Origin: Candidatus Eiseniibacteriota bacterium
GTDB lineage: Bacteria > Eisenbacteria > RBG-16-71-46 > CAIMUX01 > VGJL01
DNA: 64,000 bases
Direction: 5' to 3'
Assembly: GCA_963792585.1 (NCBI GenBank)
Contig: CAWBWI010000004.1
Location: 266,548 to 330,547 of the forward strand
The stretch's first letter is position 1. The number at the start of each line of letters is the position of its first letter. Shown one piece after another: positions 85 to 27,392 of the stretch. The position numbers and the translations under genes were made by a program. The notes under the pieces were generated by a model, which was not told the DNA's origin, searched no databases, and was given only the letters and a program-made list of their open reading frames with translations.

Positions 85-436
85 CGCCCGGCATGCCCCG
101 CTCTCCTCAGCGTCCACCGCGAGCACGCAGTTACGTGAACCGTCCGCTCTGGGGTCCGGAGCGGACACCCGCGTCCACCACTCGGCGGTTAGAGAACGGA
201 GAGGCGAGAGTTTCGGCTCATCTGCGGACCTTGCGTCCACCACTTCCCCGGACGGCGTTCGACCAGAGAGTCACGCCGCCCGACCCACCTCTGCAAGACC
301 TTCGCATTCCTGCGGATACAACGCGCCTTTTCGCGGGTCAGGGCCATCGCTTCGTCTACCACTCTCGGTCACGCGAGTTCGTTGCCCGCAGCTCCGGCTC
401 CCCGCTCAGGACTGTTTACTAACGGTTCTCTATTCC
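85..436. repeat. Intergenic repeat family, copy A (complete)
   Basis: Aligns by eye with 27075-27392, 13980-14342 and 24520-24778 (GCGTCCACCAC...GAGAGTTTCG...CTGCGGATA...GGCTCCCC). Core motif at 110, 171, 233, ~293 and 352. Confidence 0.85.
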
Positions 437-572
437 AAACTCGGCACGCCCCCGTGACAACTCCGACGGAACACGGTGATGCTGCTCGGCATGAAGCCAA
501 GGAGCGATCCTCTCTCATGGCAGAAAGAAGATCGCCCCCTGACTCAGAGGCTCGACTCAGGTTCGTCCCAGG

Positions 573-3500
573 TCATTTGGTCAGAACCAGTCGTCCCGTC
601 GTGGTCCCCCGTGCGGTCACAACCCGGGCAAAGTAGACCCCTGTCGGTACCTCTCGCCCGTTGTCATCTCGCCCGTTCCATTGGGTCGAGAAGGAACCGG
701 CCGGCCGCTCACCGTCCGCTAGCTGCCGCACGAGTGCTCCGGCCGCATTGAATATCTCCAGGGAGATAGCCGTCGCTGCAGGCAGGCGGTACAGGATCGA
801 GACTGCTCCGGAGCTTGGACTCGGAGCCACAGAGAGAGTCAGCGACTCCACGTTCTGAGAGGTCCCATCAACAGTGGAATTCGGGCATAGGTTGGATTGG
901 CAATCGGTTCCGTCTCCCAGGTAGATGCCTGGAGGTTCGCACCATTCCTGGGTTGTGAAGGTGCATGCACCGTCCTCGTGGCAGCAAGCACCGCCGGCCA
1001 AACGAATCAAGCCCAGGATGCCGCCACCTCCCGCGATGGCGAAGAAGTCGGAATTGGGTTCCGGTATGTTACAATGGCCGCTGTCGTTGTACCCCCAAGC
1101 TACGATGGATCCATCGGCCCTGAGCCCCAGACTGTGCATCGCGCCTGCCGCGACATCGACGAAGTCGGTGTATCCCGGAACATTGCACTGGCCTTGGTGG
1201 TTGCCCCCCCAGGCGACGATCTTCCCGTCGCTCTTGAGCCCCAGGTTGTGTTCGCCGCCTGCCGCAACGGCGACGAAACCGGTGTTGGGTGCTGGAACAT
1301 CACACTGGCCGCTGGTGTTGAGCCCCCACGCCACGACGGAGCCGTTACCCTTGAGGCCCAGGCTGTGCCAGTAGCCTGCCGCAACGGCGACGAAACCGGT
1401 GTTGGGTGCAGGAACATTGCACTGGCCGCGGTCGTTTCGCTCCCACGCGACGATCGACCCGTCAGTCTTGATGCCAAGGCTATGCCAGCGCCCAGCTGTG
1501 ACGGCAATGAAACCCGTGTTTGGTTCCGGTACATTGCACTGGCCGTAGTAGTTCCACCCCCAGGCCACGATGGCCCCGTCGGCCTTGAGCCCCAGGCTGT
1601 TGTCGTCGCCTGCCGCGATGGCTACGAAGTCGGTGTTGGGGTCCGGTACGCTGCATTGGCCGAACTGGTCGTCTCCCCAGGCCGCGATGGAGCCGTCGGC
1701 CTTGAGTCCAAGGTTGTGCACGTATCCACCCGCGACGGCGACGAAGCCCGTGTTGGGTGCAGGTGCATTGCACTGGCCGTAGCCGTTGTCCCCCCACATC
1801 ACGATGGAGCCGTAGGCCTTGAGTCCTAGGCTGTGGTTGGGTCCGGCCGCGACAGCGACGAAGCCAGTGTTGGGTGCCGGTAAGGTGCACTGGCCGGAGC
1901 CGTTGTCCCCCCACGCCACGATGGAGCCATCGGCCTTGAGACCCAGGCTGTGCGCCTGCGCTGGCTCAATGCGTCCTCCTGCAGCTACGGCGACGAAGCC
2001 GGTGTTGGGTACCGGTACGTCACACTGGCCGTCCTCGTTGCTCCCCCATGCCACGATGGAGCCGTCGGCTTTGAGCCCTAGGCTGTGCAAGTAGCCTGCC
2101 GCAACGGCGACGAAACCGGTGTTGGGTGCAGGAACATTGCACTGACCGCCCTCGTTCCACCCCCATGCCACGATGGAGCCGTCGGCCTTGAGGCCAAGGT
2201 TGTGATAGACGCCCGCCGCGATCGCCACGAAATCGGCATTGGGCAAGGGAACCTGATCGGTGGGCCCCCACGCCAGGATCGTCCCGTCGGCCTTGAGGCC
2301 TAGGCTGTGATTGCCGCCCGCCGCAACGGCGACGAAGTCGGCATTGGGTACAGGAACATTGCATTCATCATTGTAGTTGACTCCCCATGCCACAATCGAG
2401 CTGTCGGCCTTAAGGCCAAGGCTGTGGCCGGCGCCTGCCGCGACAGCGACGAAGTCTGCGTTGGGTGCCGGAACATTACACTGGCCGACAAGGTTGCGCC
2501 CCCACGCCAGGATCGAGCCGTCCGCCTTGAGGCCAAGGCTGTGCACCGCACCCGCGGCGATGGCGACGAGATCCTCAAGCGCGGTGGGTTCTACAACAAC
2601 CATGTTGCCCCATCCCACGATGGTGCCACCGGGCGGCTGAGGACATGGATTCGGAAGGCAGGCCGTTCCCACACCCATCCAGACGTTCTGAGGAGCGCAC
2701 AGGTACTCGGCCACGATCATGCACTGTCCGGTTGCTGGACTACAGCATGCACCCGGTGAGCAGGTTTCCGGTCCGCAAGTGCTGGGGTACCCTTGTGGAT
2801 TCCCACCTTCGGAGCGGCAAGTGCTCTCGGTGACGAACTCACAGTGCCCGTCCGGGAAGCAGCATGCCATCGAGGGTTGGGAACACGGGTTGGGGTCGCA
2901 GCTCGCGCCCATGCCCGACGATCCCCCTCCTTCATCACAGGCAGCCAGAGACAATTGCTCGCAGTGCCCATCGGGGAAGCAGCAGGCCATCGGAACGGAT
3001 GGACAGGGATTCGGGTCGCATGAGCTCCCGGGCCCCTGAAAGGACCCACCGAGCTGGTTACAGTCAGCGTGCATCAAGACCTCGCAGTGCAAGTCCGCGA
3101 AGCAGCACGCACCGGGAACCGGAGGGGTTCTGTAGAATCTTTGACTCACGTCCAGGGCTACTCCGAACACCTCCCCACTAGTAGTCCAGTCCGGGTACGA
3201 GAAGTATGCGGAACGAAACGTAGCCTGGTGGCCAGTTACCTGTCCCGCTGCTACGCGCCCCCATTGCGGTGGGAATACATGGTCGCACGCTTGAACTGAG
3301 AACCAGTATGTTCCCTCTCCGATGTTGGCCGCCACGGCCGCATGGTACTCGTAGACTGGTCCATAGAGGCCCTGACCTACATCAATCACCTCCGTCGGGG
3401 TGGATTCGAGATACTCATCCACGATGGAACCCGGAACGCCTCCAGCGTCAGCGTAGAACCGCAAGTTGAATGCAGTGACGTTGGGTTCGCCAGCTCCGTT

Positions 3501-3809
3501 GTAGTACTCCCCCCACCAGACAGCTTCATAGATGACCGTCGACGACGAGGAGTAGAAGTCGTTTGCGATTTCGGTCTCGAGCCCATACATGGCAATGATC
3601 TCTGATGTCAGCGGTTCTCCGTTGAGATCCGGAGGCTCGTCCCACCATCCGTCCCTGTCCCCGAGCAACACCGCCGGGGGGCCGCTCGCGCGATGAGGGG
3701 TCCCAAGCGTCGGCGAGCCAGCAATTCCAATTCCTTGGCAGAGCAGCAGGAACATCAAACAGAGACTCAAACAAAGGTATCCGATCCGCAACGACCCTTG
3801 GTCTTTCAT
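573..3809 (-). CDS. Secreted modular protein: conserved N-terminal domain, 5 Cys-rich modules, 14 RCC1-like repeats, FlgD-Ig/T9SS-like CTD (1078 aa)
   Basis: Intact ORF with signal peptide; repeats IVAWGxNxxGQCxVPAPNTGFVAVAAGxxHSLGLK; C-terminal IFNAAG..WNGRDDNG..TGVYF. Confidence 0.93.
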   Translation of the reverse strand: MKDQGSLRIGYLCLSLCLMFLLLCQGIGIAGSPTLGTPHRASGPPAVLLGDRDGWWDEPPDLNGEPLTSEIIAMYGLETEIANDFYSSSSTVIYEAVWWGEYYNGAGEPNVTAFNLRFYADAGGVPGSIVDEYLESTPTEVIDVGQGLYGPVYEYHAAVAANIGEGTYWFSVQACDHVFPPQWGRVAAGQVTGHQATFRSAYFSYPDWTTSGEVFGVALDVSQRFYRTPPVPGACCFADLHCEVLMHADCNQLGGSFQGPGSSCDPNPCPSVPMACCFPDGHCEQLSLAACDEGGGSSGMGASCDPNPCSQPSMACCFPDGHCEFVTESTCRSEGGNPQGYPSTCGPETCSPGACCSPATGQCMIVAEYLCAPQNVWMGVGTACLPNPCPQPPGGTIVGWGNMVVVEPTALEDLVAIAAGAVHSLGLKADGSILAWGRNLVGQCNVPAPNADFVAVAAGAGHSLGLKADSSIVAWGVNYNDECNVPVPNADFVAVAAGGNHSLGLKADGTILAWGPTDQVPLPNADFVAIAAGVYHNLGLKADGSIVAWGWNEGGQCNVPAPNTGFVAVAAGYLHSLGLKADGSIVAWGSNEDGQCDVPVPNTGFVAVAAGGRIEPAQAHSLGLKADGSIVAWGDNGSGQCTLPAPNTGFVAVAAGPNHSLGLKAYGSIVMWGDNGYGQCNAPAPNTGFVAVAGGYVHNLGLKADGSIAAWGDDQFGQCSVPDPNTDFVAIAAGDDNSLGLKADGAIVAWGWNYYGQCNVPEPNTGFIAVTAGRWHSLGIKTDGSIVAWERNDRGQCNVPAPNTGFVAVAAGYWHSLGLKGNGSVVAWGLNTSGQCDVPAPNTGFVAVAAGGEHNLGLKSDGKIVAWGGNHQGQCNVPGYTDFVDVAAGAMHSLGLRADGSIVAWGYNDSGHCNIPEPNSDFFAIAGGGGILGLIRLAGGACCHEDGACTFTTQEWCEPPGIYLGDGTDCQSNLCPNSTVDGTSQNVESLTLSVAPSPSSGAVSILYRLPAATAISLEIFNAAGALVRQLADGERPAGSFSTQWNGRDDNGREVPTGVYFARVVTARGTTTGRLVLTK

Positions 3810-3903: not shown

Positions 3904-6900
3904 TCAACGCAGCACGATCAGACGGCTCGATTGCACCTCTCCCCCCATGCGAAGCCGGCAAACATAAACGCCTGAGGGGAGGATTCGTCCGGCGTCGTCG
4001 TTGCGCTTCCAGATCATCTGATGAACTCCGGCCGAATACGGCATTCGCGAAGCGAGTCGCCGGACGCAGCGGCCACTAACGTCATAGATGGCCAGATCGA
4101 TCACTGCTTCCTTCGCGAGGCCAAACGCGATCGCCGTCTCGTTGGCGAAGGGGTTGGGTCTCCCGGGCATCAGTCCCATCGTCACCTGGGCCATGGGATC
4201 CTCAGTCCCCGTGGCGGGACAACCGAGACCGAGCGCTCCGATCAAGAGATCGCATGGGCTATTCCAGGGCAAACACGGGGAACCGGACAAGAGGGTGTAA
4301 TCCCCTCCGGGAGGGGGCGCGTCACATGGTTCTGGAGCACAGAACCTGGGATCCGAGAACACCTGCGGGCCGAGGTAGGTGATGCTGCCGCTCGCTCCCA
4401 ATCGATCAAGCGCGCAGCAGGTCATCGTTAGGTTCGAACCAATCACTTCGTGGCCCAGTGGGTTGCTTGGGTTCGTGTTCCCCCAAAGGATGGTCCGGCT
4501 CACCTGCGTGTCGGTTCCGTCCAGCCCCCCCGTCCCATTCTCGTTGTCCGAGCAGTTGCTGCTGATGGTGCAGCTGATAATGCTCGAACTCGCGACCTCA
4601 ATCCCCCTGCCAATGTTGCCCGTGATGACACAGTCGTTGACTTGGAGATTGCTTCCCCGGATCCCACCCGGGCTGCCGCGGTTACCGCTGACCGCGCAAC
4701 CTGCGATCGTCAGGCTGTCCCCCACGACTCCACCGACGTCACCGTGATTGTCGGCGATCACGCAATCCCGAATCGTCGTATTGGAGCCGGCGTGCACTCC
4801 TCCCGCACCCATACCCCCGCTGTTGCCTCGAATGTCGCAACCCGCGATGACTCCCGCCGCGCAGTAGATCCCACCACCGTAAAGCGCATGGTTGGAGTCG
4901 ATGGTGCATCCGGAGATATCTCCGTTATAGCAGGCGATGCCACCCCCGATTGCACTTGCATTTGAGTACACGTAGTTGCCGGTGACAATGCAGTTCCGCA
5001 TCGTCAGAATCGACGATTCGTCGCTATAGATCCCCGCCCCGCCAAATCCTGCTGGATATCTGCTGCTTCCCACGGTGCAGTCCGAGATCGTGCAGTCGGT
5101 CAGGAGAGGAGAAGCCGAAGCGCTGCAGTGGACGCCTGCACCCCGACCCCAGTGGTCGATTTGGAAGTTGATGATCTTGCAGCCCTTGATCCACGGCGAG
5201 GATGACAAGATGTGGATTCCGCCACCCCCGAACTCCGAGTATCCGCCGGATAGCGTTACCGCTTCGAGCACGGCCCGATTGTCTTCCCCGGAATCGAAGG
5301 TGAATCCGCCTGCTCCGCCGCATCCGATGACGCACTGGTCGGGGTCCCTGCTCTGCGAGCGAATCGTCACCAGCCGCCCGTGATAGTCAATCTGGCGATT
5401 GCCCGGCCCCGTGAAGGGCGTGCCGATCAGTTCGATCACGTCCCCGTTCGCGAGGTCCGTGTAGTCGATCGCCGCCTGAATCGTCGGGAAATACGGGGGC
5501 GATTCTCCACTCCCGTCGGAGCGGACATAGTAGACCGAGCCGCCGGGTGGCTGGGCGCACGGGTTCGGAGCGCAGGGCGTACCCACCCCCATCCAGACCT
5601 TGGGCAGTATGCACTGCTCCTCAGTCAGCATCGTGCAGCGTCCCGTTGTCGGGTTGCAGCACGCGCCATGGGGGCCAGTCAGCCCCAGGCCGTGCCAAGC
5701 CTCTGCCGCAATGGCCACGAAGCCGTTGTTGGGTTCCGGAACATTGCACTGGCCGTTGGCGTTGTCCCCCCACGCTACGATGGAGCCATCCGCCTTGAGG
5801 CCCAAACTGTGGTTACTCCCTGCCGCGACAGCGACGAAGCCGGTGTTTGGCGCCGGTACGTCGCGCTGGCCATCGGAGTTGCTCCCCCATGCAACGATGG
5901 TGCCGTTGGCCAGAAGTCCCAGACCGTGACTGGTCCCTGCCGCGACAGCGACGAAGCCGATGTTGGGTGCAGGAACATCGCACTGGCCTCCGGAGTTGCT
6001 CCCCCATGCCACGATGGAGCCATTCGCCTTGAGGCCCAGGCTGTGGTGGTGCCCTGCAGCAACTGCGACGAAATCGGCGTTCGGCGCGGGGACGTCGCAC
6101 TGGCCGGAGGAGCTGCTCCCCCATGCCACAATGGAGCCGTCTGTCTTGAGCCCTAGGCTGTGGCTTGCGCCTCCCGCGACAGCGACATAGCCGATGTTGG
6201 GTGCAGGGACATCGCACTGACCGTAGCTGTTATACCCCCATGCAACGATCGAGCCGTCCGTCTTGAGCCCGAGGCTGTGAGTGGTCCCTGCCGCGACGGC
6301 GACAAAACCGGTGTTGGGCGCCGGCACATCGCACTGGCCGTATTGGTTATTGCCCCCCCACGCCACGATTGAGCCGTTAGCTTTCAAACCAAGACTGTGG
6401 TTATCTCCTCCGGCGACCGCGACAAACCCGAGGTTGGGTTCCGGCACGTCGCTGCCGAACTCCCACAACACGATCGACCCGCTGGGCGGCTGAGGGCATG
6501 GATTCGGAAAGCAGACTGTTCCCTCACCCATCCAGACGCCGGGGGCCGTGCACTGCTCCTCGGCCATCACCATGCAGTTTCCCGTTACTGGACTGCAGCA
6601 TGCGCCAAACTGTGGGCAGAGTGATTCGTCACAGGTGGTCGGATACCCGAGTGGAATCCCGCCTTCGAATATGCAGGTCTGTTCCGTGGTGAACTCACAG
6701 TGTCCGTCCAAAAGCAGCATGCCATCGAGGGTTGCGGACAGGTGTTCGGGTCGCAGTTGATACTGACGCCCGACGATCCCCCTCCTTCATCACAGGCAGC
6801 CTGAGACAATGGTTCGCAGTGCCCATCGGGGAAGCAGCATGCCATTGGAACGAACGGGCAAGGGTTCGGGTCACAGGTGGTCTCGGGCCCCTGCCACACC

Positions 6901-7667
6901 CCGCCGAGTTGATCGCAGTTCAGCTCCACCAGAGATTCGCAATGCAGATCGAAATAGCAACACGCTCCGACAACCGGCGGAGTTGTATAGAACCTCTGAC
7001 TCGCGTCGAGGGGGATACCCCAGATTTGCTCAGTAGGAGTCCAGTCTGGGTACCCAGCCCATTCAGAACGCAACATGGATTGGTAGCCGGTCACCTGGCC
7101 CGCTGAGAGGCGACCCCATTGCGGTGGGTACACATGGTCGCATGCTTGAACTGAGAACCAGTATGACCCTACTCCGATATCGACCGTCACGGATGCATGG
7201 TACTCGTAGATTGGTCCGTCGGGGCCCTGACCTTGAGGAATCGTCTCTGTAGGGGTAGTTCCGGGATACTCGGCAATGAGGGAACCCGGAACGCCACCCG
7301 CGTCATCGTAGAACCGCAGGTTGAATGCAGAGACGTTTGGCCCGGTTCCATCGTCGTTGAAGTACTCTCCCCACCACACGGCCTCATAGATGATCGTCGG
7401 CGCTGAGGAGTAGAAATCGTTTGCAGTTTCAGTCTCGAACCCAAGGATAGAAATGATCTCTGAACTCATCACACTTCCGTACAAATCCGGTGGCTCGTCC
7501 CACCATCCCTCCCTATCCCCGGGCAACGCCACCGGCGGCCCGCTTGCGCGATGCGTGGGGCCAAGCGTCGGCGTACCCGCAAGCCCAATTGCCGGACAGA
7601 GCATCACGAAGATCAAGCAAAGACCCACGCAAAGGCATCCGATCCGCAACGACCCTTGGTATTTCAT
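3904..7667 (-). CDS. Paralogous secreted modular protein: N-domain, 5 Cys-rich modules, 7 RCC1 repeats, right-handed beta-helix, FlgD-Ig CTD; one frameshift near 6710
   Basis: ORFs 6585-7727 (MKYQG start at 7667) and 3904-6720 join at ACCF/DGHC within a T run. N-terminus is highly similar to 573-3809. Confidence 0.88.
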
Positions 7668-8113
7668 CTGGCGGCCCCTTTCCCTTTGTCCCAGTCGGCT
7701 CCGAGCAGCAGGACGCCAAGCGTTCACGTGGATTGGTGACCTCGGATGAACGGACGATCACCCGCTCCACCGCTCGTACTCATCGGAAATCAATGGGATC
7801 AAGCTCGCGGCTCTCACAGTAAGTGCCCTTCCGGTCGCATCCGCGTAGTTGAAGGCGGGATAAGTGTACTCCCGTCGAGGGCGAAGGGCGCGGATGTAGT
7901 GGAGGAAGCCGTTTCTCTTCCTGGCCGCCGCCCGACAAGGCTACCCCAGGGATCTGCCGCCCCAGGCGATGATTACGGGGCTTTGGGCCGGTTGGTCGGT
8001 GCGTCGGGGTGGAATACTTCCGATCGTGGCCATGCCCGATCCGAAACCCTCTCCTCACGACTCCGTCGATCAGTCATCGTGGCGACGACTCGCAATCTCG
8101 GGGATGACGCTCC
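7668..8113. repeat. Duplicated ~450-bp 5' leader/intergenic region (copy 1)
   Basis: Colinear with 17672-18117; the first ~80 bp also resemble 3810-3890. Confidence 0.85.
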
Positions 8114-9100
8114 CTATCGGGCCAGGACAACCCTTCCCGTTGTTGATCCTTCCCCCGTCACGATCCGCGCGAAGTACACCCCCGTGGGCAGGTCGCGACC
8201 GTTGTCATCGTGGCCGTCCCAGGGCGTGAAGAACGCACCCGCGGGGCGCTGGCCCTCGTCGACTCTGCGCACCAGGCCACCCGCCGCATCGAACACCTCG
8301 ATAGTGACTGCCGTGGGTCTAGGCAGGGTGTACCGGATCATGACCTGGCCGGTGCTCGGATTCGGGGTTGCGGTCAGCCGTAGCTCGCTGACCTGTGTCG
8401 CATCCTCCACCCCGGACACGCACGGGTTTGGCTCGCAGAAACTACCGGGCCCCATAAAGACCCCGTCATACCCAACGCACTGAGCCTCTGACATCCGTTC
8501 GCAGTAGGTGTGGTGGCAGCAGGCTCCTACCAGGCATGGATTCGGGTCGCAGTCGGTGCCCCAACCCTGCCAGACGCCAGGGGCCGGGCAGTTGGCTTCC
8601 GTCGCCATCATGCAGGTGCCGTCAGGCTGGCAACACGCCGCGCCTAGGTCCTCCCGGTCGAGGTCTTCCCATCTAAAGAGGCCAGTTCCCGACGTCCAAA
8701 TCCATACCTGCCCATCGTCGTAGGCGAACGGGATCATGTTTCCGTCTTGGCAGTCCATGTCCACGACGCTCGCCCCTTCCCGATGTGCGTCGACAAAGAA
8801 CTCAAACCCCGAATACATCCCCGCAAGGTACACTTGATCGTCCGCATAGAGGATCAGAAGCCCTGAGTACCTTGCCTGCATCCGCTTGATGGGGACATTC
8901 CTGTTCACGTCGGTCAACTGTGTGGGGGGACCACCACCCCTCCAGACCTGGTTGTCCTCGTAAGCAGCGAATACGACCTGATTGATCCCCGCCACGTCGA
9001 CGATCTTCAGTAACTCGGCTTGTGACATTGCGGGAAGCAAGAGGAGCAAGGAAACGACAGACACCAGCATCGCGGTTCTCACAGTAGGCCTCCCCTTCAT
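8114..9100 (-). CDS. Secreted protein with short YxDxQV repeats, 2 Cys-rich modules and FlgD-Ig CTD (328 aa)
   Basis: Signal peptide; YEDNQVW/YADDQVY/YDDGQVW; GACC..PNPC twice; PNPS..WDG..GVYF. Confidence 0.9.
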   Translation of the reverse strand: MKGRPTVRTAMLVSVVSLLLLLPAMSQAELLKIVDVAGINQVVFAAYEDNQVWRGGGPPTQLTDVNRNVPIKRMQARYSGLLILYADDQVYLAGMYSGFEFFVDAHREGASVVDMDCQDGNMIPFAYDDGQVWIWTSGTGLFRWEDLDREDLGAACCQPDGTCMMATEANCPAPGVWQGWGTDCDPNPCLVGACCHHTYCERMSEAQCVGYDGVFMGPGSFCEPNPCVSGVEDATQVSELRLTATPNPSTGQVMIRYTLPRPTAVTIEVFDAAGGLVRRVDEGQRPAGAFFTPWDGHDDNGRDLPTGVYFARIVTGEGSTTGRVVLAR

Positions 9101-10054: not shown

Positions 10055-10544
10055 TCAGCCGTCATCCCTGTCGCAACCGCAACCAGACCGAGGAATGCGA
10101 CAGTGATCTGCCCCAGACACCCGCTGACGCGTGTGCGCTCGAAGCGGGGACCGTCGTCTGGATCTGATTGAGCATCTTCGTGGCCCCGCGCCGTTGACTT
10201 CACGCGAGCCAAGTACTCTGATCCGCCTCCGAGCGGCACATCCTCAAGTTTCCCTGAGGAACGGGCTGCCAGAATGTAGCTGTACTCCGGGTCAGCGAAG
10301 AATCTGGGACGAATAGTCCCTGTCGCTTCTATGAGCTCCATCCCGCTTGATGCGATTGTGGTTACGCCGGTTCGCTGAAGAGGCTGCTCGATCGGGATAG
10401 AGGCTCATCGAGCGTCGGTAGACAGCTCCCCTGGCCGTGTCCTGCGTTTCGCCCTTCCTGACCGGGCGCGGCGGCCCGGCGCTGCTTCAGATGTCGGTGG
10501 GTGCGGCTTCCCGGCAGGTGGGAACGAAAATGGCGTCATGGGCT

Positions 10545-10700
10545 GCCTCCGCAACACCCACAACGCCTTCCGCTTTGTGGCCGGGCCGCTGTCTGGTGAT
10601 ATGTACCGATGCGGTGCGTTCACCGCGATGAATCAGTTTCTACGCGGGGAGCGGGAGCGTGTCAAGGGCGACCCGAGAAGCATCTGCTTCCCAGGCCGCC
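10545..10700. repeat. Degenerate partial copy of the intergenic repeat
   Basis: GCGTTCACCGCGATGAATCAGTTTC at 10616 matches unit 1 (GCGTTCACCACGAGATCGCAGTTTC at ~22450). Confidence 0.5.
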
Positions 10701-12028: not shown

Positions 12029-12334
12029 CTGCCCGCTCCTCCTTCAATGACGATGGGGACGGTCTTTCTCTTCGTCCCCACCCGAAGCTGAGCGAAGTAG
12101 ACCCCCCGCAACTCTGATGCCTCCATCGGTCTTTCCGTCCCACGCCACGTCCTTCACGCCATTAACTATCGCTCCACGCAACAAGGAGGCGAATCTTCGC
12201 GGTTCGCACCATCACTGTTATCTCGAGCGCGCGCTTTGGTGTCGGCATATCCGCTGGAAAGGATGCTGAGGAAGTGTGGTCCAGACCTGGTCGGGGATGG
12301 GTGCTAGGGCCTAGAGTTGGGGGCCAGGACGCAG

Positions 12335-12605
12335 ATGCCCCTCGGCCCACTCGGCGGAGGGGCTTCCAGTAGGCGCAATGAGAATCTGCGACCTGCATGC
12401 TCGACTCCAGAACCTCGATCCCACGTGAACTGGCCCGCGCAAGTCGTCGCGATGAGGCGGCGTATGCGTCTGGAGAAGACGCAACGAGGATACCGCGATC
12501 ACGGAGGGAGCGCCAGCGGCATTTGATGAGCGTTCGCCACGACCGCACAGTTTCGTCAACCGTCCTCAGCGGGCATCGCTCATGCTGAGAGCGTCCACCA
12601 CTCGG
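12335..12605. repeat. Second repeat segment (shared with 24222-24425) fused to the left part of the intergenic repeat
   Basis: CTCGGCGGAGGGGCTTCC...CTCCAGAACCTCGATCCC...GCGTCTGGAGAAG..GCAACGAGG present at both loci, followed by CAGTTTCG...CGCTCATGCTGAGAGCGTCCACCAC. Confidence 0.8.
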
Positions 12606-17300: not shown

Positions 17301-17671
17301 CCACCAGCGTCAGAGTAGAACCGCAAGTTGAATGCAGTGACATTTGGTTCGCCTTCTCCGTTTTCGTACACTCCCCACCACACGGCTTCAAGGATGGTCG
17401 TTTGCGCCGAAGAGTAGAAGTCGTTTGCGACTTCGGTCTCGGTCCCATAGACAGCATTGATCTCTGACATCAGCGCCGATCCGTTGAGATCCGGAGGCTC
17501 GTCCCACCATCCGTCCCGATCCCCGAGCATCACCGCCGGCGGCCCGCTGCCGCGATGCGCGAGCCCAAGCGTCGGGGGACCGGCAATTCCAACTGCCGGA
17601 CAGAGCATCACGAAGATCAAGCAGAGACCCAAACTGAGGAATCCGACCCGCGACGACCCTTGGTTCTTCAT
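14371..17671 (-). CDS. Third paralog: N-domain, 9 Cys-rich modules, PPC-like beta-sandwich, 7 RCC1 repeats, FlgD-Ig CTD; frameshift near 16805
   Basis: ORFs 16793-17731 (MKNQG start at 17671) and 14371-17037 join at EQLS/QAAC with one extra base. Confidence 0.88.
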
Positions 17672-18133
17672 CTGACGGCCCCTTTCCCTCTGTCCCAGTC
17701 GGTTCCGAGCAGCATGACGCCACGCGTCCAAGTGGATGGATTATCTCGGGTGAACGGACGATCACCGGCTCCACTGCTCGTACTCATCGGAAATCAATGG
17801 GATCAAGTGCGCGGATCTCACAGTAAGTGCCCTTCCGGTCGCGTCCGCGTAGTTGAAGGCGGAATAAGTATACTCCCGCATGGGGTGGAAGGCGCATATT
17901 GTAGTGGAGGAGGCTTGCTCTATTCCGGACGCCACCCAAGAAGGCTGACCCAGGGATCTGCCGCCCCAGGCGATGATTGCGGGGTCTCCGGCTGGTTGGT
18001 CGGTGCGTCGGGGTGGAATACTTCCGATCGTGGCCACCGCTGTTCCAACACGTCCCATTCACGCATCCGTGGATCGCTCATCGTGGCGGCGACTCGCAAA
18101 CTGAGGGGGACGCTCCCTATCGGGCCAAGATCA
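17672..18133. repeat. Duplicated leader region (copy 2) plus last codons (VILAR*) of a deleted gene
   Basis: Colinear with 7668-8130, including CGCTCCCTATCGGGCCA. Confidence 0.85.
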
Positions 18134-19511
18134 CCTGTGCTTCACGAGAATCCCTGCAGCCGCTCCCCCAGACAGATCTGCCGCCAATCCGTGATACGCT
18201 CAGCGACCTCATGGAAACACTTCTATCCGGACTGCTCAGATTCCTCCGCGCGATTCTCCAGTCGAGGACAACTCTGGCCTTGGAGAACGCCGCCCTGCGC
18301 CAACAACTCACGATCTACGAACGCTCTCAGAGGCATGTTCGGCTCCGAAGTGAAGATCGACTCTTCTGGATCTTTCTGCGCCGACTCTGGTCGGGCTGGG
18401 ATCGGACCCTGATCGTCGTCAAGCCCGAGACCGTGATCGCATGGCATCGACGAGGCTTCAAACTCTTCTGGAGGAGGAAGTCGGGGCCGTCCGTAGGCCG
18501 ACCGAAGATCCCACGGAGTCACATCCGATACATCCAGCGCATCTCGGGCGACCACCCGGAGTGGGGCGAGGACAGGATCGCCGAAGAACTTGTCGCCAAG
18601 TTCGGAGTCTCACACTCGTCCAGCACCATCCGTCGGTACATGGTTCCACGCGAGCGACCGCCCCGCGCAGAAGCAGACCTGGCGCACCTTCATTCAGTAA
18701 CCATGCCGGGCAGGTGTGGGCCTGCGACTTCCTCACCCAGTACACGGCTTTCTATGCCGTCATCCACGTCTTCGTCATCATGGAGGTCGGATCGCGGCGG
18801 ATCGTCCATGCCAACGTCACGAGCAACCCGACATTGTCATGGGTGAAGCAGCAGTTCCGGGAGGCGACGGCCGATGGCCAGATGCTCCGCGCTTCCTCGT
18901 CCACGACAACGGCGGAATCTACCGGCAGTGGGGGAAGCCCCTGGTCGTGGAGGAGGAAGGCCGGAGCCGCAGCTACCGATGCCATCTCGATCTCTGGTTG
19001 GACCAAGTCATGGGTATCGAGGGGCTGCCGATTCCCTACGGAGCGCCGAACGCGTCGCCCCACATCGAACGGTTCATGAGGACGCTACGGCAAGAGGCGC
19101 TGGACCACTTCATCTTCCTCAGTGCCGATCACATCCGTCGAGTCGTCAGCGAGTACGTCCGTTACTACAACGGGGCGCGCCCGTCGCAGGCGATTCACGG
19201 GATTCCCGATCCATACCCGGAGCTACGGCAGCCACCACCGACCGCGGGACGATTGGTTGCCCTCCCCATCCTGGGTGGCGTCCAGCACGACTACCGGTTG
19301 GTCGCGTAGCTCTCTTTCGTCCGTTCGGCCACGCTCAATCGCGAGGGATAACTACGCCCCGGCCGGTCGGAAATCTCCTCGACGCGCTCGCACTTGCTTT
19401 TCGGAGCGCCTCGAGAGCATGGATCGTTGCCCTGCTACGTCCCAAGAACATCCAAGCCGACGATAATCAGGTTAGTCCGCCAAGGCGCATGGAGTTTTCT
19501 CGGAGTACGGG
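18134..19511 (+). mobile_element. Insertion sequence with rve/integrase-core DDE transposase (IS3/IS481-like); CDS ~18211-19309 with frameshifts
   Basis: ENAALRQQL, VKPETVIAWHRRGF, WACDF, APNASPHIERFMRTLRQE, YYNGARPSQ, LGGVQHDY. Imperfect terminal IRs CCTGTGCTTCACGAGAATCCC / GGAGTTTTCTCGGAGTACGGG. Confidence 0.85.
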
Positions 19512-19650
19512 TTTCCAAACAGAGAATCGGCCCGGCGGAGGCACGCGCGCAACAGGCGCGCAGCTCTGCGGATAACGAAGAGCCCCGATGGCATCAACCA
19601 CCGAGGCTCCGTTCACCGCTCTGATCACGCGCAGGTCATGCAGCGGGGCC
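19512..19650. repeat. Intergenic repeat family, copy C (right part, cut by the IS)
   Basis: AAACAGAGAATC...CTGCGGATA...ACCACCGAGGCTCCGT.CACCGCTCTGATCACGCGCAGGTCATGCAGCG, nearly the same as 24645-24780. Confidence 0.85.
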
Positions 19651-22140
19651 TTATCTGGCCAAGATCACCCGTCCCGTCTTGGTCCCCTGTGGCGTTACAA
19701 CCCGGGCAAAGTAGACTCCTGTCGGCACCTCTCGTCCGTTGTCATCTCGTCCGTCCCATGGGGTCGAGAAGGAACCGGCCGGCAGCTGGCCCTCCACTAG
19801 CTGCCGCACAAGGACTCCGGCCGCGTCGAATATCTCAAGGGTGATAGCCGTCGCTGTGGGCAAGCCATAAAGGATCGAGACTTCTCGGGAGCTAGGATTA
19901 GGAGCGGCCGTGAGAGTCAGCGACTCCGCAGTCCGAGATATCGCCTCGATAGCGGAAGGCGGACACTGGTTGCCCAGACAGAGTGTTCCATCTCCCTGGT
20001 AGTTGTTTGGAGGCTGACATCCTTCCTGGGTTGCCTGCCTGCATGTGCCGTCAACATAACAGCATGCTCCCGGCCGTGGACACGGATTCGGCTCGCAGGT
20101 CGTCCACTCCCCGTGCCAGACGTTGGGAGCGACACACTCAAGGGACGTCGTGATTGTGCAGGTCCCGGTCGTGGGGTTGCAGCACGCACCTTGAGGCTGT
20201 GGACTGGACAGCTTGGCGACGAACGCGTCGTGATCGCCCCCGTTATACGATGTGTCGTAGGCTCCCGGCGTCGTGGGGAATGTCGAAGAGGCCAGTCCCG
20301 TCAAGACGGGGCATTCAGAAATATCCAGAGCGAGGGCAACGCCTCCGTCCCCGCCACTTCCCCCCAGGAAAGTGCTAAAGAGAAGTATCGAACCCGTGCC
20401 GGAGAGCCTGGCGACGAATGCGTCACTGTAGCCATCGAGCGAGGCGTCGTACGCCCCCGGCGTCGTCGGGAAGTCCGAAGATACGGTAGAGCCCGTCAGG
20501 ATTGGTTCTCCTGCTGCATTCAGAGCAAGGGCCGAGGCCCTATCAAGGTTGTTTCCCCCCAGGAAGGTGCCCCAAAGAAGGCTCGAACCCGTGCTGGAAA
20601 GCTTGGCGACGAAGACGTCATAGCCGCCGCCGTTGAATGAGGTGTCGAACGCCCCCGGCGTCGTGGGGAAGTCAGAAGACCAGGTCAACCCCGTCAGGAC
20701 GGAGTTTCCTGAAGTGTCCAGCGCGAGAGCATAGCCCTCCTCAACATCGCTCCCCCCCAGGAAGGTGCTCCAGAGAAGGCTCGAACCTGTGCTGGAAAGC
20801 TTGGTGACGAAGGCATCGACGGAGCCGTTGATCGAGGTGTTGTATGCCCCCGCCGTCGTAGGAAAGTCCGCAGATAAGGCATACCCCATCACGACGGGAT
20901 TATCTGACGAGTCCGGAACGATCGCATAACCCCGGTCATAGTCGTTCCCTCCTAGGAAGGTGCTCCAGAGAAGGCTCGAACCCGTGCCAGAAAGCTTGAC
21001 GACGAACGCGTCGTACAGGCCACCGTTGAATGAGGTGTCGAACGCCCCCGGCGTCGTGGGGAAGTCGGATGAGTAGGTGTACCCAGTCAGGACAGGGTTT
21101 CCAGAAGCGTCCAGAGCGACGGAAAGGGTACAGTCCATATCGCCCCCCCCTAGTAGGGTGCTCCAGAGAAGGCGCGAACCCGTGCCAGAAAGCTTGGCGA
21201 CAAACGCATCACTGTGGCCGGCGAGCGAGGCGTCGTACGCCCCCGGCGTCGTGGGGAAGTCAGAAGACTCGGTTCTACCCGCTAGGACTGGGTCTCCTGA
21301 AGTGTCCAGAACGATAGCATCGCCGTCGTCATCGCTGCTTCCCCCCAGGAATGTGCCCCAGAGAAGCGCGCTCGGATCGTCCCGATCTCCCAGCCCCACA
21401 TCCTCACCGTCGATCTCCCCAAGTGCTCTCCCCGCCAAGAATCGTCCTTCCCTGCTCCCGGCCCCCGGCCGGACCTCCACCAACCACCCCGCCGATGTCT
21501 CGAGCCACACCTCCGGGCCCCCGCGATCCATCACCTGCTCGACGCCCTTGTACAGGAACCGGGAGGGTTGTGGCGCGGCACCGTTCTGCGCCACCATCTC
21601 GTACGTCAACGCACCATCCTGGCTCCGGAATACCAGATCCACGCCGGGCCAGAGTTCCGGATAGACAACCTCGCCGTAGGAGGGAACGTCCGTCCGCCAT
21701 CGGGCCGGGTCATTCCCAAGAAAGAAGTTGTACCTGCCAGGTAACTCCTCACGAGCCTCCACGCGGGGTGCGGAATCCGCTCCGTCAAAGCAGAGCCACA
21801 CGGCGCAGCCGCGTCTCTGCGATGATCTAGGCTCTCCTGCAAGTTGTACTGCACTCGCCGGTCCACGTGAGAACCTCGGATGCCGTCCCGCGCCAGTCTC
21901 CCAGGATGCCTCCACTGTTTGCTCCACATCCGCCTGCGTGTCCTCATCGCGCAGGTCGAAAACCAAAGCATCCCTTGTGAAGTAGACGGTCCCACGCTGC
22001 CCCGTGCCGTAGAACAAGACCCGTTCGTCCAACTGGCCGCGGTTCTGGATGAACCCGCTGGAGATGGCCTCCGCTCTGGGCACAGTGAGAACACAAGCAG
22101 TCAAGATCAGCAAACAGACGCCAAGGAACCTCACCGGCAC
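19651..22140 (-). CDS. Secreted SBBP beta-propeller protein (6 clear repeats), 2 Cys-rich modules, FlgD-Ig CTD; start uncertain
   Basis: FIQNRGQ N-domain; repeats LLWSTFLGG..D...G.T.SSDFPTTPGAYD..DAFVAKL. Confidence 0.9.
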   Translation of the reverse strand: MPVRFLGVCLLILTACVLTVPRAEAISSGFIQNRGQLDERVLFYGTGQRGTVYFTRDALVFDLRDEDTQADVEQTVEASWETGAGRHPRFSRGPASAVQLAGEPRSSQRRGCAVWLCFDGADSAPRVEAREELPGRYNFFLGNDPARWRTDVPSYGEVVYPELWPGVDLVFRSQDGALTYEMVAQNGAAPQPSRFLYKGVEQVMDRGGPEVWLETSAGWLVEVRPGAGSREGRFLAGRALGEIDGEDVGLGDRDDPSALLWGTFLGGSSDDDGDAIVLDTSGDPVLAGRTESSDFPTTPGAYDASLAGHSDAFVAKLSGTGSRLLWSTLLGGGDMDCTLSVALDASGNPVLTGYTYSSDFPTTPGAFDTSFNGGLYDAFVVKLSGTGSSLLWSTFLGGNDYDRGYAIVPDSSDNPVVMGYALSADFPTTAGAYNTSINGSVDAFVTKLSSTGSSLLWSTFLGGSDVEEGYALALDTSGNSVLTGLTWSSDFPTTPGAFDTSFNGGGYDVFVAKLSSTGSSLLWGTFLGGNNLDRASALALNAAGEPILTGSTVSSDFPTTPGAYDASLDGYSDAFVARLSGTGSILLFSTFLGGSGGDGGVALALDISECPVLTGLASSTFPTTPGAYDTSYNGGDHDAFVAKLSSPQPQGACCNPTTGTCTITTSLECVAPNVWHGEWTTCEPNPCPRPGACCYVDGTCRQATQEGCQPPNNYQGDGTLCLGNQCPPSAIEAISRTAESLTLTAAPNPSSREVSILYGLPTATAITLEIFDAAGVLVRQLVEGQLPAGSFSTPWDGRDDNGREVPTGVYFARVVTPQGTKTGRVILAR

Positions 22141-22409
22141 CCCGCCGCGACTCCATCTTTCGGACCAGGAGTCGACGGAGCATCGGACCTTGCCAACATG
22201 AGGACGAAAGAAGCTCCCATACAAGCCAGCCATGGCGAATCCCCCGTTCGTAATTGCACCTGTGGAATGATCCGCTGTTGTGACCGGGAAGTATCCTACG
22301 CTTCTCCGAGCCCACAAGCAATGTGGACTCTACGGCGGGTGATGTACGAGGTTGTGTGCCAGGCCGGTCTCAGGAAGTGCTTGAGACGGGCGGGAGATAG
22401 CTCCGTGTA

Positions 22410-22517
22410 CCGCGCCCCGGCCCCATGCCGCCCTGTCCCGCTCGCATCCGCGTTCACCACGAGATCGCAGTTTCGTGAAGCGTCCTCAGCGGGCATCGCT
22501 CATGACGGGAGCGTCCC
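22410..22517. repeat. Intergenic repeat family, copy D (left part)
   Basis: GCGTTCACCACGAG..GCAGTTTCGTGAAGCG..CAGCGGGCA.CGCTCATG matches 14006-14060. Confidence 0.8.
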
Positions 22518-22592: not shown

Positions 22593-23325
22593 TTACCGAA
22601 ACAGCGACTTCACCTCACCCCAGGTCGTGTTCTTTACCGGCGTCGATTCGCATGGATTCGGATCGCACGGAATCCCGTCGCCCACGTACGCCCCTCCGGC
22701 CACTTCGCAATCCTCCACGGTTCCCTCCAGGCAAGCACCCGATGGGAAGCAGCAGGCTCCAGTTCCGGTACTGGTGACTGACACGGCATCGAGCGCCAGT
22801 CCTTGCCCGAAATGGGGACTCCAGACGTGTGTGAACTGCAGCGTGGTCAGTTGGGAATCCGCCGTGAACCGCCTGGCGTAGGTCAGGTAGTTCATGTTGT
22901 CGCGCGTCGATCCGGAATGCGTGAGGGTCGTGTCGACCAGGTGTTGTGGTGCCCAGCACCTGCACCCTGCCGGTGGCCGTAGACGCATCTATGTTGTTCG
23001 CATATGCAAACGAGAGTGAGTACGCTTGCCCGGGTACGGTCGCGAAGGACTGCAGAATCGTGGTTCCGATGCCACTGTCACCGTCCAGATCGATCGACTG
23101 CGAGCCCTGGAAGGCAGGCCAGTAATCACGGACCAGATCGATGGTCCAGCCATCCGGGATCGTCCAGCCTGTGATGAAGTCGCCCGTTACGTCGACGAAA
23201 TCCGTGCCAGCGGGTAACGGTGGCAGTTCAAACCCGCCGTTCACGATCTGCTCTGCCATGGCCGTGGTCGCGCCGCCCAGGATGATGATGACCGCGACCA
23301 TCCACGAACAAGACCTGTTCATCAT
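22593..23325 (-). CDS. Secreted DUF642/choice-of-anchor-C-like protein, Cys-rich module, TTWGEVKSLFR; frameshift near 22945
   Basis: IVNGGFE, GSQSIDLDG, QSFATVPGQAYSLSF; continues in ORF 22593-22988. Confidence 0.82.
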
Positions 23326-23358
23326 GTTGAGTCTCCCCTCTCGCGCGGGGCACTCCGC

Positions 23359-24135
23359 CTAACGGTAGATCGCCTTGACCCGCCCCCAAGTGGTGGTCTC
23401 AATGGGTGTCGACTCGCAGGGGTTGGGATCACAGGGAACCTCGTCGCCCAGGTAGGTTCCTCCCGCCCCCTCGCAGCCCGCCTCCGTCCCCAGCAGGCAA
23501 TCGCCGGAGGCGAAGCAACACGCGCCGACCGGAGGCTCGGTGGTCTCCAGTACGAAGTCGATCTGGGTGCTGTCGTAGTAGAAGGAGATGGGGCTCACCG
23601 CGCATTCCACCGTGGATCCCGCGTGCACGGAAATCGTCCCGCTGTAGTCCGCCGTCGTGCCGAGCCCATCGAGCGTCGCCTCGTAGAGCTCTATACCGTC
23701 GGCGAGGATGAATACAATCTTCGAGCCGATGTCGATGGACAGAAAGTGTGCGGTCACCGTCACACTGTCAGCGCTCGGCGCCGTCCACCGAACCACGCTC
23801 TGCTGAGCGGGCCCAGGATGAAAGAGGGCCTTATGCGGCTGGATGACAAAGGTCTGGCAGGTGATCGGGTAGTCGTGGGGGTTCCGGATCACATTGGGGC
23901 ACCAGACCTCGAAGTACTTCACCCACGGTTCGAGATCGGGACAGAAGTAGTTGTGGTCGGTGTAGAGAGTCAGCGGCTCTTCCGCGGAGGGCCGCCACCC
24001 GTACGACCACGCCCCGTTCGGGTTCTGAGTTGCCGAGAAGTCATCGGCCAGGTTCCAGACTTCTCCCTGACTCACGACCGGGCACAGCAGCAGGAGCGTG
24101 CACACCACGCCCGCGATTCGCATCTTCATGGTCAT
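23359..24135 (-). CDS. Secreted protein with Cys-rich module and TTWGRVKAIYR (258 aa)
   Basis: GAGGAG RBS; signal peptide; DFSATQNPNGAWSYG. Confidence 0.88.
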   Translation of the reverse strand: MTMKMRIAGVVCTLLLLCPVVSQGEVWNLADDFSATQNPNGAWSYGWRPSAEEPLTLYTDHNYFCPDLEPWVKYFEVWCPNVIRNPHDYPITCQTFVIQPHKALFHPGPAQQSVVRWTAPSADSVTVTAHFLSIDIGSKIVFILADGIELYEATLDGLGTTADYSGTISVHAGSTVECAVSPISFYYDSTQIDFVLETTEPPVGACCFASGDCLLGTEAGCEGAGGTYLGDEVPCDPNPCESTPIETTTWGRVKAIYR

Positions 24136-24221
24136 TTTCTCCTCTGAAATACGACGGCATTCCTCGACGAACGGGAGTGGGGGTGGTCGCAAGTCGAATG
24201 AGGCGGAGTATGGAATGTGGC

Positions 24222-24778
24222 TGCCCTTCGGACCTCTCGGCGGAGGGGCTTCCCACGAGCACGCTGTGGACTTACGGCCTGCATACTCGGCTCCAGAACC
24301 TCGATCCCGTGTGCACCGGAGTGGCGCTCATCGTCGCGGTCGGGCGGCGAAGGCGTCTGGAGAAGTCGCAACGAGGGTACCGCCATCACGGCTGAGACTC
24401 CAGCGGCATTTGCTGGGCGTTCACCGAGAGGCGGCGCAGCACTACCGGTCAGAAAGCGGTCCTTGTTGCTGCGGTAGCGGTTACGAGGATCACCAGCGAG
24501 GCTGGTCGGAAACCGTATCGAGCGGTACCGCTCATGCCGAGAGCGTCCACCACATCGTCGGAGAGAACCGAGAGGAAGAGAGTTTCGCCCCCTCGCGCCC
24601 CAATTCGTGACGGTTCACACCGCTCGCGCTCGATACACTTCGCAAACAGAGAATCCGCACCGCCGAATTCACCCCCGCAACACGCAAGCGTTTCTGCGGA
24701 TATAGACGAGCCTTGGCGGCATGCACCACCGAGGCTCCGTCCACCGCTCTGATCACGCGCAGGTCATGCAGCGCGGCC
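24222..24778. repeat. Second repeat segment (24222-24425) and intergenic repeat copy E (24520-24778)
   Basis: Matches 12335-12540 and 14050-14270 respectively. Confidence 0.85.
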
Positions 24779-26950
24779 TTATCTTCAAGAGCACGACTCG
24801 CGCGGTCCTCGTCCCCGCGTTCGTCGAAACGCGTGCCAGATAGATCCCCGGCACGACCTCGCGGCCCGCATCGTCACGTCCATCCCAGACCACGTCGTGA
24901 ACGCCGACGCTCATGATCTCGTCCTGTAAACATCGTACCAAGCGCCCCGCAACATCGTGGATGGTCGTCCGCACGGAGCCTGCGGTCGGCAACTCGAAGC
25001 GAATCGCCGCCTGCCGCCACGCCGGATTCGGGACCGTACGCAGACGAAACGTCGCGGCGATGTCCGTGTTCTCGGCGTTTCCTACCGGCTCGCACTGGAC
25101 CGGCAGAATCTGGAGACCGGAATCGTAGTCTGCGACGTAGGCGTGGGTGCCCGAGACGGCCACGCCACGGGCACTCCCCGGCGTGTCCACGCTGCCCACG
25201 ATCTGCGGGCTCGCGGGATTCGTGATGTCGATCACCTGGAGACCGGGATCCCAGTCCGCGACGTAGGCGTAGGTGCCCGAGACGGCCACGCCATAGGCAG
25301 TCGTCCGGCGTGTTCACGCTGCCCACGATCTGGGGGCTCGCGGGATTCGTGATGTCGATCACCTGGAGACCGGATCCACTGTCCGCGACGTAGGCGTGGG
25401 TGCCCGAGACGGCCACGACCATAGGCAGTCCCCGGCGTGTCCACGCTGCCCACGATCTGGGGGCTCGCGGGATTCGTGATGTCGATCACCTGGAGACCGG
25501 AATACCTATCCGCGACGTAGGCGTGGGTGCCCGAGACGGCCACACCATGGGCATCGCCCGGCGTGTCCACGCTGCCCACGATCTGTGGGCTCGCGGGATT
25601 CGTGATGTCGATCACCTGGAGACCGGAATCGTACGTCCGCGACGTAGGCGTAGGTGCCCGAGACGGCCACACCATAGGCACTCCCCGGCGTGTCCACGCT
25701 GCCCACGATCTGGGGGCTCGCGGGATTCGCGATGTCGATCACCTGGAGACCGGACGTCCGCCGTCCGCGACGTAGGCGTGGGTGCCCGAGACGGCCACGC
25801 CATGACGCGCACTCCGGCGTGTCCACGCTGCCCACGATCTGAGGGCTCGCGGGATTCGTGATGTCGATCACCTGGAGACCGGAATCCCCGTCCGCGACGT
25901 AGGCGTGAGTGCCCGAGACGGCCACGCCTTGGGCACGTCCCGGCGTGTCCACGCTGCCCACGATCTGGGGCTCGGGGATTCGTGATGTCGATCACCGAAG
26001 ACCGGATGCTCAGTCCGCGACGTAGGCATAGGTGCCCGAGACGGCCACGCCCACGGCACGTCCGTGTCCACGCTGCCCACGATCTGGGGCTCTGGGATTG
26101 TGATGTCGATCACCTGGAGACCGGAATCCGTCCGCGACGTAGGCGTAGGTGCCCCGAGACGGCCACGCCAACGGCAGTCGCCCGGCGTGTCCACGCTGCC
26201 CACGATCTGGGGGCTCGCGGGATTCGTGATGTCGATCACCTGGAGACCGGACTACCCAGTCCGCGACGTAGGCGTAGGTGCCCGAGACGGCCACGCCCAT
26301 GGCATAGCCCGGCGTGTCCACGCTGCCCACGATCTGGGGGCTCGCGGGATTCGTGATGTCGATCACCTGGAGACCGGACGCGCCGTCCGCGACGTAGGCG
26401 TAGGTGCCCGAGACGGCCACGTCCATAGGCATCGCCCGGCGTGTCCACGCTGCCCACGATCTGGGGGCTCGCCGGATTCGTGATGTCGATCACCTGGAGA
26501 CCGGACTCGGCCGTCCGCGACGTAGGCGTAGGTGCCCGAGACGGCAACGTCCATAGGCATCGCCCGGCGTGTCCACGCTGCCCACGATCTGGGGGCTCGT
26601 CGGGATTCGTGATGTCGATCACCTGGAGACCGGAGCTGCCGTCCGCGACGTAGGCGTAGCTGCCCGAGACGGCCACGCCCAAGGCATCGCCCGGCGTGTC
26701 CACGCTGCCCACGATCTGGGGGCTCGCGGGATTCGTGATGTCGATCACCTGGAGACCGGAGCCCCAGCCGTCGGCGACGTAGGCGTGGGTGCCCGAGACG
26801 GCCACGTCCATAAGCCCAAGTCCCGGCGTGATCCACGCTGCCCACCCAGTGGAGGTAGTCTCCGTAGTCGATGCACTCAGCAGAGGCAGGGCACGAAACT
26901 ACGAGCACCCCAAGGAATGCCAGACCGATGACAACCACGGGAACTCTCAT
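24753..26950 (-). CDS. Secreted LVIVD-repeat beta-propeller protein, 14 units, FlgD-Ig CTD; many indels (true stop probably 24779)
   Basis: Signal peptide [10 protein letters not shown]; unit [42 protein letters not shown] with ~126-bp period. Confidence 0.9.
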
Positions 26951-27074
26951 GGCCAGTCCCTCCCTTCGATCTGCCACCGAAAGCACAGTCAATTCAGCAC
27001 GGAGAGATGCGGCGGGATGAGTTTAGGGGATCCTGACGCTCGGATCCATGGCGGATTTCGTAAACCCTTGCTCT

Positions 27075-27392
27075 GCACGCCACGCTCGCGTGAGCATCCA
27101 CCAGGAGAACTCAGTTTCGTATGCGGTTCGCTGTGGGGTTCGCTCATGTTGAGAGCGTCCACCACCGGGGGGATAGAGAATGGAGAGGCGAGAGTTCCGC
27201 CCCATTTTCGGCCCGTGCGTTCACCACTTCCGCGGACGCCAATCACGCAGAGAGCACGCCCCCGGGACCCGCCCGCGCAACACCCTCGCATTTCTGCGGA
27301 TACAACGCACCTTTTCGGCATCGTCGCACCGACGCTCCGCTCACCACTCTCCGCCGCTAAGTTCGTACCCTGCATCGTCCGGCTCCCCGCTC
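27075..27392. repeat. Intergenic repeat family, copy F (complete; closest to copy A)
   Basis: Core motifs at 27094, 27155, 27217, ~27276 and 27337. Confidence 0.85.

Follow-up and report, generated by a model that had tools for sequence, protein, structure and literature searches.

A repeat-punctuated gene array in a Candidatus Eiseniibacteriota genome is probably a decayed stack of serine-recombinase island units on a spare tRNA-Asn half

INTRODUCTION

What is a conserved non-coding repeat doing between the secreted-protein genes that occupy the first 27.4 kb of a 64,000-nucleotide stretch of Candidatus Eiseniibacteriota contig CAWBWI010000004.1 (here C4; the whole stretch is called the window)? 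The original prediction, made from the letters alone, likened the layout to an integron cassette array and proposed an undescribed site dedicated to surface-protein genes. We find instead that the start of the repeat derives from the 3′ end of tRNA-Asn. We judge, at a probability of roughly 0.78, that the repeat joins this tRNA end to the left arm of islands carrying a DUF2924 gene paired with a large serine recombinase (LSR) gene, and that the array is a partly decayed stack of such units, inserted at a spare tRNA half and now without its LSR.

RESULTS

The repeat lies in clusters of one orientation

The repeat was confirmed by BLAST and with a profile built on 11 full copies, which matches seven copies in the window, all in a single orientation, and none in a reversed-genome control. 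The matches (84-434, 12521-12606, 13981-14343, 19495-19626, 22431-22516, 24524-24753 and 27068-27398) recover seven of the eight copies listed by the original prediction, at the places and in the shared orientation that it gave. The eighth, at 10545-10700, has no profile match and belongs to a second repeat family (10472-10700), with which only a short motif is common by eye. As predicted for the sequence after 27.4 kb, profile searches find no copy in the rest of the window beyond 27.43 kb. At the other end, three further partial copies lie to the left of the window (C4:255.9-264.4 kb), so that the array extends beyond it and the copy at 85, which had been thought to bracket the array together with the other complete copy, is internal.

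Over the 5.4-Mb genome, whose assembly is 84% complete, a wider profile counts 30 copies, full or partial. Nearly all belong to four clusters, each with one orientation only: the window's own at C4 255-294 kb, and three at C1 199-227, 264-320 and 1877-1946 kb. At 62.2%, the G+C content of the window's array portion is below that of its remainder (66.6%).

Complete copies join a tRNA-Asn end to a conserved arm

Read in gene direction, a complete copy starts with the tRNA-Asn 3′ end GGGGAGCC (the core), continues with a terminator-like hairpin, which may be the terminator of the tRNA, and ends with a conserved arm of ~300 bp that bears the motifs ACTCTC and GGTNNAC. The alignment contains a single conserved hairpin, on the gene strand only. 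Just three window copies keep the core (396-403, 14305-14312 and 27381-27388). The parts of the array, listed from its head leftward, are these:

27381..27422, minus strand: landing pad at the array head, a tRNA-type (B) half-site; degenerate 3′ half of tRNA-Asn that reaches from the anticodon loop (GT-NN-AC) as far as the core GGGGAGCC (27381-27388); from sequence and tRNA-half pattern match
27054..27389, minus strand: complete left arm of the head unit, with core, hairpin region and the ACTCTC and GGTNNAC motifs; from profiles (11-copy profile match 27068-27398)
24471..24768, minus strand: coreless arm, with a 3′ flank in common with the 19.5-kb copy
22432..22516, minus strand: distal arm fragment; from profiles
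19509..19640, minus strand: coreless arm fragment, truncated by the neighbouring insertion sequence (IS)
13969..14343, minus strand: complete internal junction, with an element-type (P) half-site of ~30 bp, core at 14305-14312, terminator-like hairpin at ~14232-14261, and arm
12519..12608, minus strand: distal arm fragment joined to an IS 5′ fragment (12604-12750)
12199..12543, minus strand: third repeat family, a distal extension of the arm, with a second copy at 24113-24430; seen in this genome only
10472..10700, minus strand: second repeat family, leader region
71..434, minus strand: complete internal junction with a P-type half-site, core at 396-403

The head copy including its pad spans 27,054-27,422 and is remote from the genome's tRNA-Asn. 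The pad equals the 3′ half of that tRNA at 26 of 44 bases, and it retains the T-loop and the acceptor end.

The arm tracks tRNA-Asn and a large serine recombinase

Four other genera of the family also have the repeat, which forms an array of five copies in one genome (G003). In another relative (G005), the arm begins where an intact tRNA-Asn ends. Of 24 other tRNA-Asn loci fetched from the order, 11 are followed by at least 150 positions that match a profile trained without these loci; 3 of the 24 end <110 bp past the tRNA. With one copy as the query, BLAST matched only 3 others in 206 genomes of the phylum; BLAST is too insensitive for this repeat, and the profile reaches further. An arm-motif pattern scan of viral contigs gave no matches, two matches of such a pattern in actinomycete genomes lie inside genes and look like chance, and the output of a low-threshold pseudo-tRNA scan was noise.

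The DUF2924-LSR pair lies directly behind the arm in G012 and G026 and also downstream in G005. It is found 0.6-14 kb downstream in 6 of 20 fetched regions, several of which are short contig ends, and the LSR is 58-66% identical to the G005 enzyme. The LSR has Resolvase, Recombinase and zinc-ribbon domains; it is not a Ccr recombinase, as it scores 104-158 bits against NCBIfam CcrA/B/C cut-offs of 700-900. Two sister islands of the same genome carry the pair, and they also encode a methylase, a terminase, a 192-aa tyrosine recombinase and, in one island, a primase-like protein. Indeed, when viral loci were chosen by the LSR protein alone, the arm was present in 25 of the 80 best (reversed control, 0/80), and 8 of the 14 tRNAs in these loci were tRNA-Asn. 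Two marks of tRNA- or tmRNA-targeted LSR islands are thus present: unit borders that carry a copy of a stable-RNA gene's 3′ end, and a link between LSR and border sequence, the latter in the sister islands, the relatives and the LSR-chosen viral loci. The original prediction called for a search for a co-occurring recombinase, and this search was successful in sister islands and relatives, but not in the window's own island; the window itself contains no integrase that we could find, as had been noted.

Some properties of these elements were recorded in passing. The LSR module occurs both ways round: in some elements the LSR faces the tRNA or arm, and in most others it faces away (L131 in G011, G000:C1:273529-275553, L162, L169, L171, L210). 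The 192-aa tyrosine recombinase consists of the catalytic domain only, adjoins the terminase in most such islands and is 60-76% conserved (L016:9534-10109, L017:9381-9960, L119, L120, L125). In a metagenome contig (L044:3425-4907), an arm copy is cut in two by an IS110-family transposase gene.

The second repeat family is likely a relic of a deleted recombinase module. It has 9 matches in the genome and 15 in relatives' loci (control 0), it is present in 11 of the 80 viral LSR loci, and in six relatives' loci and one sister island it forms a leader 230-370 bp upstream of DUF2924. Because the family closely precedes DUF2924 elsewhere, the window's island has likely lost a DUF2924-LSR module.

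Spare tRNA halves are dispersed among the genomes

The array is unusual mainly in that it sits on a spare tRNA half, distant from the real tRNA gene: the genome's own tRNA-Asn is on C3 and the stack is on C4, so the stack is not anchored at the intact gene. A tRNA-Asn 3′-half pattern gave 50 matches in 35 genomes, and its backwards control gave 1. Halves away from intact tRNAs number 4 in this genome, 8 in G027, 3 each in G023 and G003, 2 each in G008 and G012, and 1 each in G002 and G025; the G025 match (on C42) has no arm and was removed before the position weight matrix step, and one G003 match is absent from the fetched regions. Similarity to the tRNA begins ~5 nt before the anticodon loop, and the two central bases of the loop vary.

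Among 15 fetched pad regions, 11 contain the arm and 3 the DUF2924-LSR pair. For 2 of the 4 pads tried in an empty-site search, orthologous flank genes are found without pad and arm (G023, G019, G027, G015), with spacers too diverged to locate the crossover. Some pads have upstream flanks in common (three in G027, two in G003), and therefore not all pads are independent. In G002, the pad is 900 bp behind an intact tRNA, beyond a small toxin-antitoxin pair. Two diverged arm copies lie outside the four arrays of this genome (G000:C3:573357-573586 and C2:376122-376415), one with a tRNA-half pad and one near a terminase gene.

Two junction classes differ by 5 bp

The gap between GTTCG and the core is 10 nt in all 24 intact tRNAs and in 16 of 23 tRNA-half pads, and 15 nt in 15 of 22 internal junctions. 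In serine integrases, the ZD motif of attB half-sites lies 5 bp nearer the centre than that of attP half-sites (PMC3783163, available part). The two junction classes, tRNA-type at the head and element-type inside, are 5 bp apart and match the spacing of attB and attP half-sites. Three arrays of this genome are headed by a tRNA-type pad and have element-type junctions within; one further pad is internal.

A unit of 1,959 bp, composed of an arm, a 5′ flank and a beta-helix gene, is found in two islands at 94.6% identity. It starts 3 nt before the core and stops at the stop codon, and it lies behind a pad in one island and behind an element-type half in the other. A unit bounded by the core and a stop codon in two such contexts is what insertion at the core would leave.

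Cargo genes and neighbouring features

The proteins encoded in the array contain RCC1, beta-helix, SBBP, LVIVD and DUF642 regions, and many have a FlgD_ig/type IX secretion system (T9SS)-like C-terminal domain (CTD). The genes and the IS are as follows:

573..3809, minus strand: RCC1-repeat protein with FlgD_ig/T9SS-like CTD
3904..7727, minus strand: RCC1-repeat paralogue, split over two reading frames
8114..9100, minus strand: FlgD_ig/Por_Secre_tail protein
10721..12028, minus strand: beta-helix protein
12884..13801, minus strand: unknown protein with a hydrophobic N-terminus
14371..17731, minus strand: RCC1-repeat FlgD_ig protein, split over two reading frames
18137..19509, plus strand: rve_3 IS, frameshifted, with ends read from sequence
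19651..22317, minus strand: SBBP/DUF7948 protein with FlgD_ig domain
22615..24192, minus strand: DUF642 (choice-of-anchor C-like) gene and unknown gene
24779..26992, minus strand: LVIVD-repeat FlgD_ig gene with many frameshifts

Frameshifts are frequent in the assembly, where a Xer-like recombinase gene is also split, and gene breakage is consequently uncertain. In the LVIVD gene (24779-26992), a repeat spacing of 126-130 bp implies many single-base indels, by decay or assembly error, whereas the 117-bp RCC1 repeats are in frame. The original prediction had the element abutting unrelated genes at 19650 and 24778; the genes that end at 19651 and 24779 have CTDs of the same family and a near-identical 3′ flank, and so are not unrelated at that end.

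Other features of the window include a small zinc-ribbon gene with a KhpA-like fragment at 9667-10054, near-identical pieces of which (91-92%) occur in both C1 islands; a 390-bp 5′ flank at 7730-8115 and 17731-18135 that is common to six RCC1-family paralogues of the genome (73-83%); and a tRNA-Asp gene at 39651-39728 that has no relation to the array.

DISCUSSION

Proposed history of the array

The junctions suggest recombination at these sites, with a crossover in or beside the core and with the LSR as the probable enzyme, supplied either in trans or by a module since deleted. In the simplest reading, the pad would have arrived at its present chromosomal site via a separate recombination at the anticodon loop, for which the islands' 192-aa tyrosine recombinase is a candidate. 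LSR units would have inserted successively at the pad's core, every insertion leaving an element-type junction and an arm ahead of the older cargo. The recombinase module would later have been deleted from the window's island, and the IS insertion (18137-19509), deletions and homologous exchange would have trimmed four of the seven copies; we propose homologous exchange because the copies are mosaic and because the genes ending at 19651 and 24779 have a common 3′ flank. The original prediction was right to view the repeat as a recombination-site-like, co-oriented junction between gene units.

Several observations weigh against this history. Four of the seven window copies are without the core, and the wider profile that counted 30 genomic copies had a training set that included some loci later scored by it. 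A search of contig C4 found neither LSR nor DUF2924, and both sister LSR genes are broken over frames, through either decay or errors of assembly. Behind the genome's own tRNA-Asn there is a simple hairpin, and just one 85-bp arm piece 1.4 kb on. The right half-sites give a weaker signal, as 14 of 22 internal junctions have the motif at +23/24, against 12 of the 23 pads and 6 of the 24 tRNAs, and the best symmetry centre falls on a single base of the core rather than a dinucleotide; for these two reasons the crossover can be narrowed down no further than the core. No clear attR, empty site or circle was seen for the window's island, and a search of 34 relatives at E<=1e-30 gave no orthologue of its flank gene. 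Finally, an attL-like site is an atypical target for phage serine integrases, as far as the available part of PMC3783163 describes them.

Other explanations

The arms might once have been island ends while the present array grew by homologous recombination or duplication via arms and common CTD sequences, with no site-specific step at internal junctions. Full copies across the genome, 51-80% identical, are mosaic, which favours such growth: nearest neighbours switch by segment, and some 60-bp segments are 98-100% identical in copies that are 70-80% alike overall. Partial copies are numerous and break at varied positions, and the cargo genes are paralogues with common flanks. We nevertheless consider such growth unlikely, since 15 of 22 internal complete junctions across genomes have a distinct element-type half-site up to the core, and since the beta-helix unit common to two islands begins at the core. 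Somewhat less likely again is that the same sites are used and all steps performed by the islands' short tyrosine recombinase, or by the chromosomal IntI. Both sister islands encode the 192-aa enzyme, as do the islands of three relatives, at 67-76% identity, pads start at the anticodon loop, and integration at tRNA ends is mostly the work of tyrosine integrases, which 910 of 937 tycheposons carry (bioRxiv 10.1101/2020.12.28.424599, available part). It is the LSR, however, that the arm tracks in the enzyme-first test and directly precedes in G012 and G026, the 5-bp shift fits serine integrases, and IntI has its own attC array.

The dedicated, integron-like shuffling system for surface-protein genes put forward by the original prediction we regard as very improbable. 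The four islands do have 85 of 107 open reading frames (ORFs) of 150 aa or more and 27 of 31 CTD genes co-oriented, and CTD genes are ~3-fold denser there than elsewhere (31 genes in the islands' 191 kb and 269 in the other 5.2 Mb, or 16.2 versus 5.2 per 100 kb). But the repeat lies within 600 bp of the 3′ end in only 10 of 300 CTD-tagged genes, so it is not a CTD-specific tag, and TIR, NACHT, restriction, toxin-antitoxin, other defence and IS genes also follow the arm. The array is not an integron either, and the repeat was correctly said not to be attC: it has no attC hairpin and no whole-element fold on either strand, a profile of the genome's own attC has no match in the window at E<1, and no IntI lies alongside, the genome's IntI (TIGR02249, 431 bits) being on contig C6 with its own attC array. 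That large chromosomal integron (G000:C6:618821-667777; L073, L074) has IntI followed by ~40 attC sites of ~130 bp. The two LSR islands contain fifteen attC sites of this family amid defence-type genes (C1:267238-269290, 1880070-1881476, 1934611-1941677; L023, L018, L020); they are integron cassettes carried as island cargo.

An ordinary miniature inverted-repeat transposable element (MITE) or repetitive extragenic palindrome (REP), a structured non-coding RNA or a decayed ORF would account for a multi-copy, intergenic repeat of ~360 bp near IS elements, and these identities are largely refuted. The copies are not scattered in both orientations, as the original prediction wished to have checked, but clustered with one orientation per cluster; no terminal inverted repeats or target duplication were seen in a by-eye inspection of the alignment, and a Y1 or Y2 (IS91/REP) transposase was not found in the genome, a weak blank at 84% completeness and with a Y2 control that matched nowhere. 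Rfam, another check that had been suggested, gives no match to an E value of 1 in window 1-28000, the one local hairpin is the only fold, and single copies fold no better than shuffles (z -0.9 and -1.2). There is neither codon periodicity nor a common open frame, and the element begins with a tRNA end.

Significance and relation to known systems

Beyond the stack of decayed LSR units, a portable platform is a tentative and rather doubtful extension: anticodon-loop recombination would copy the tRNA half to new sites, each a fresh LSR target, and recombinase-less one-gene units would be exchanged among several such arrays of one cell, in a self-seeding, integron-like system that in this lineage would collect mostly CTD-tagged secreted proteins, with integron cassettes among its cargo too. 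Active pads would let a single enzyme serve several arrays per genome, by which surface and defence genes could turn over fast, and might provide a tool for serial gene stacking; if the pads are inactive, the array is a decayed island of an already known kind. In either case, stacks occur off the tRNA gene, on spare tRNA halves, and the lineage supplies dozens of natural site variants with which att geometry can be tested.

Serine-recombinase islands at tRNA-Asn seem widespread yet thinly described in print. A literature search that left most subscription papers and supplements outside its reach found nothing on serine recombinases at tRNA-Asn or anticodon loops; for DUF2924 with a recombinase it returned, in the text available, only Wolbachia papers and nothing on tRNA-Asn LSR islands. 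The comparisons that follow are likewise drawn from the available parts of the papers cited.

Integrons (IntI, attI, attC) are similar in their co-oriented gene units, single head site and, as we infer here, growth at the head, but the array has no attC fold, no IntI nearby and no window match to the genome's attC family. Tycheposons integrate successively at tRNA ends and leave partial tRNAs, and some carry primase and packaging genes, but theirs are mostly tyrosine integrases and their islands stay beside the tRNA (bioRxiv 10.1101/2020.12.28.424599). Phage large serine integrases (A118/LI, Bxb1, phiC31) have the same Resolvase, Recombinase and zinc-ribbon domains and the 5-bp shift between host-type and element-type half-sites, whereas the array implies repeated targeting of a host-type/element-type hybrid and several targets per genome (PMC3783163). 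The staphylococcal cassette chromosome (SCC/SCCmec) and its enterococcal counterpart (ECC), mobilized by Ccr recombinases, are also driven by LSRs, vary in cargo and have att repeats where their units meet; they differ in the enzyme (the CcrB cut-off is 900, and our LSR reaches 158), in their rlmH target and in an att region that is much shorter (PMC6222049). The Dehalococcoides ssrA islands, integrated by the CcrB-like serine recombinase DsiB, likewise stand in tandem at a stable-RNA gene, in its 3′ part, with borders that repeat that end, and many of their units have no integration module, which is ascribed to accretion (PMC3146451). Compared to those islands, the target here is tRNA-Asn, the partner of the LSR is DUF2924 rather than DsiA, the repeated piece includes a 340-bp arm rather than ~20-35 bp, and stacks are found also on tRNA halves away from the gene (PMC3146451).

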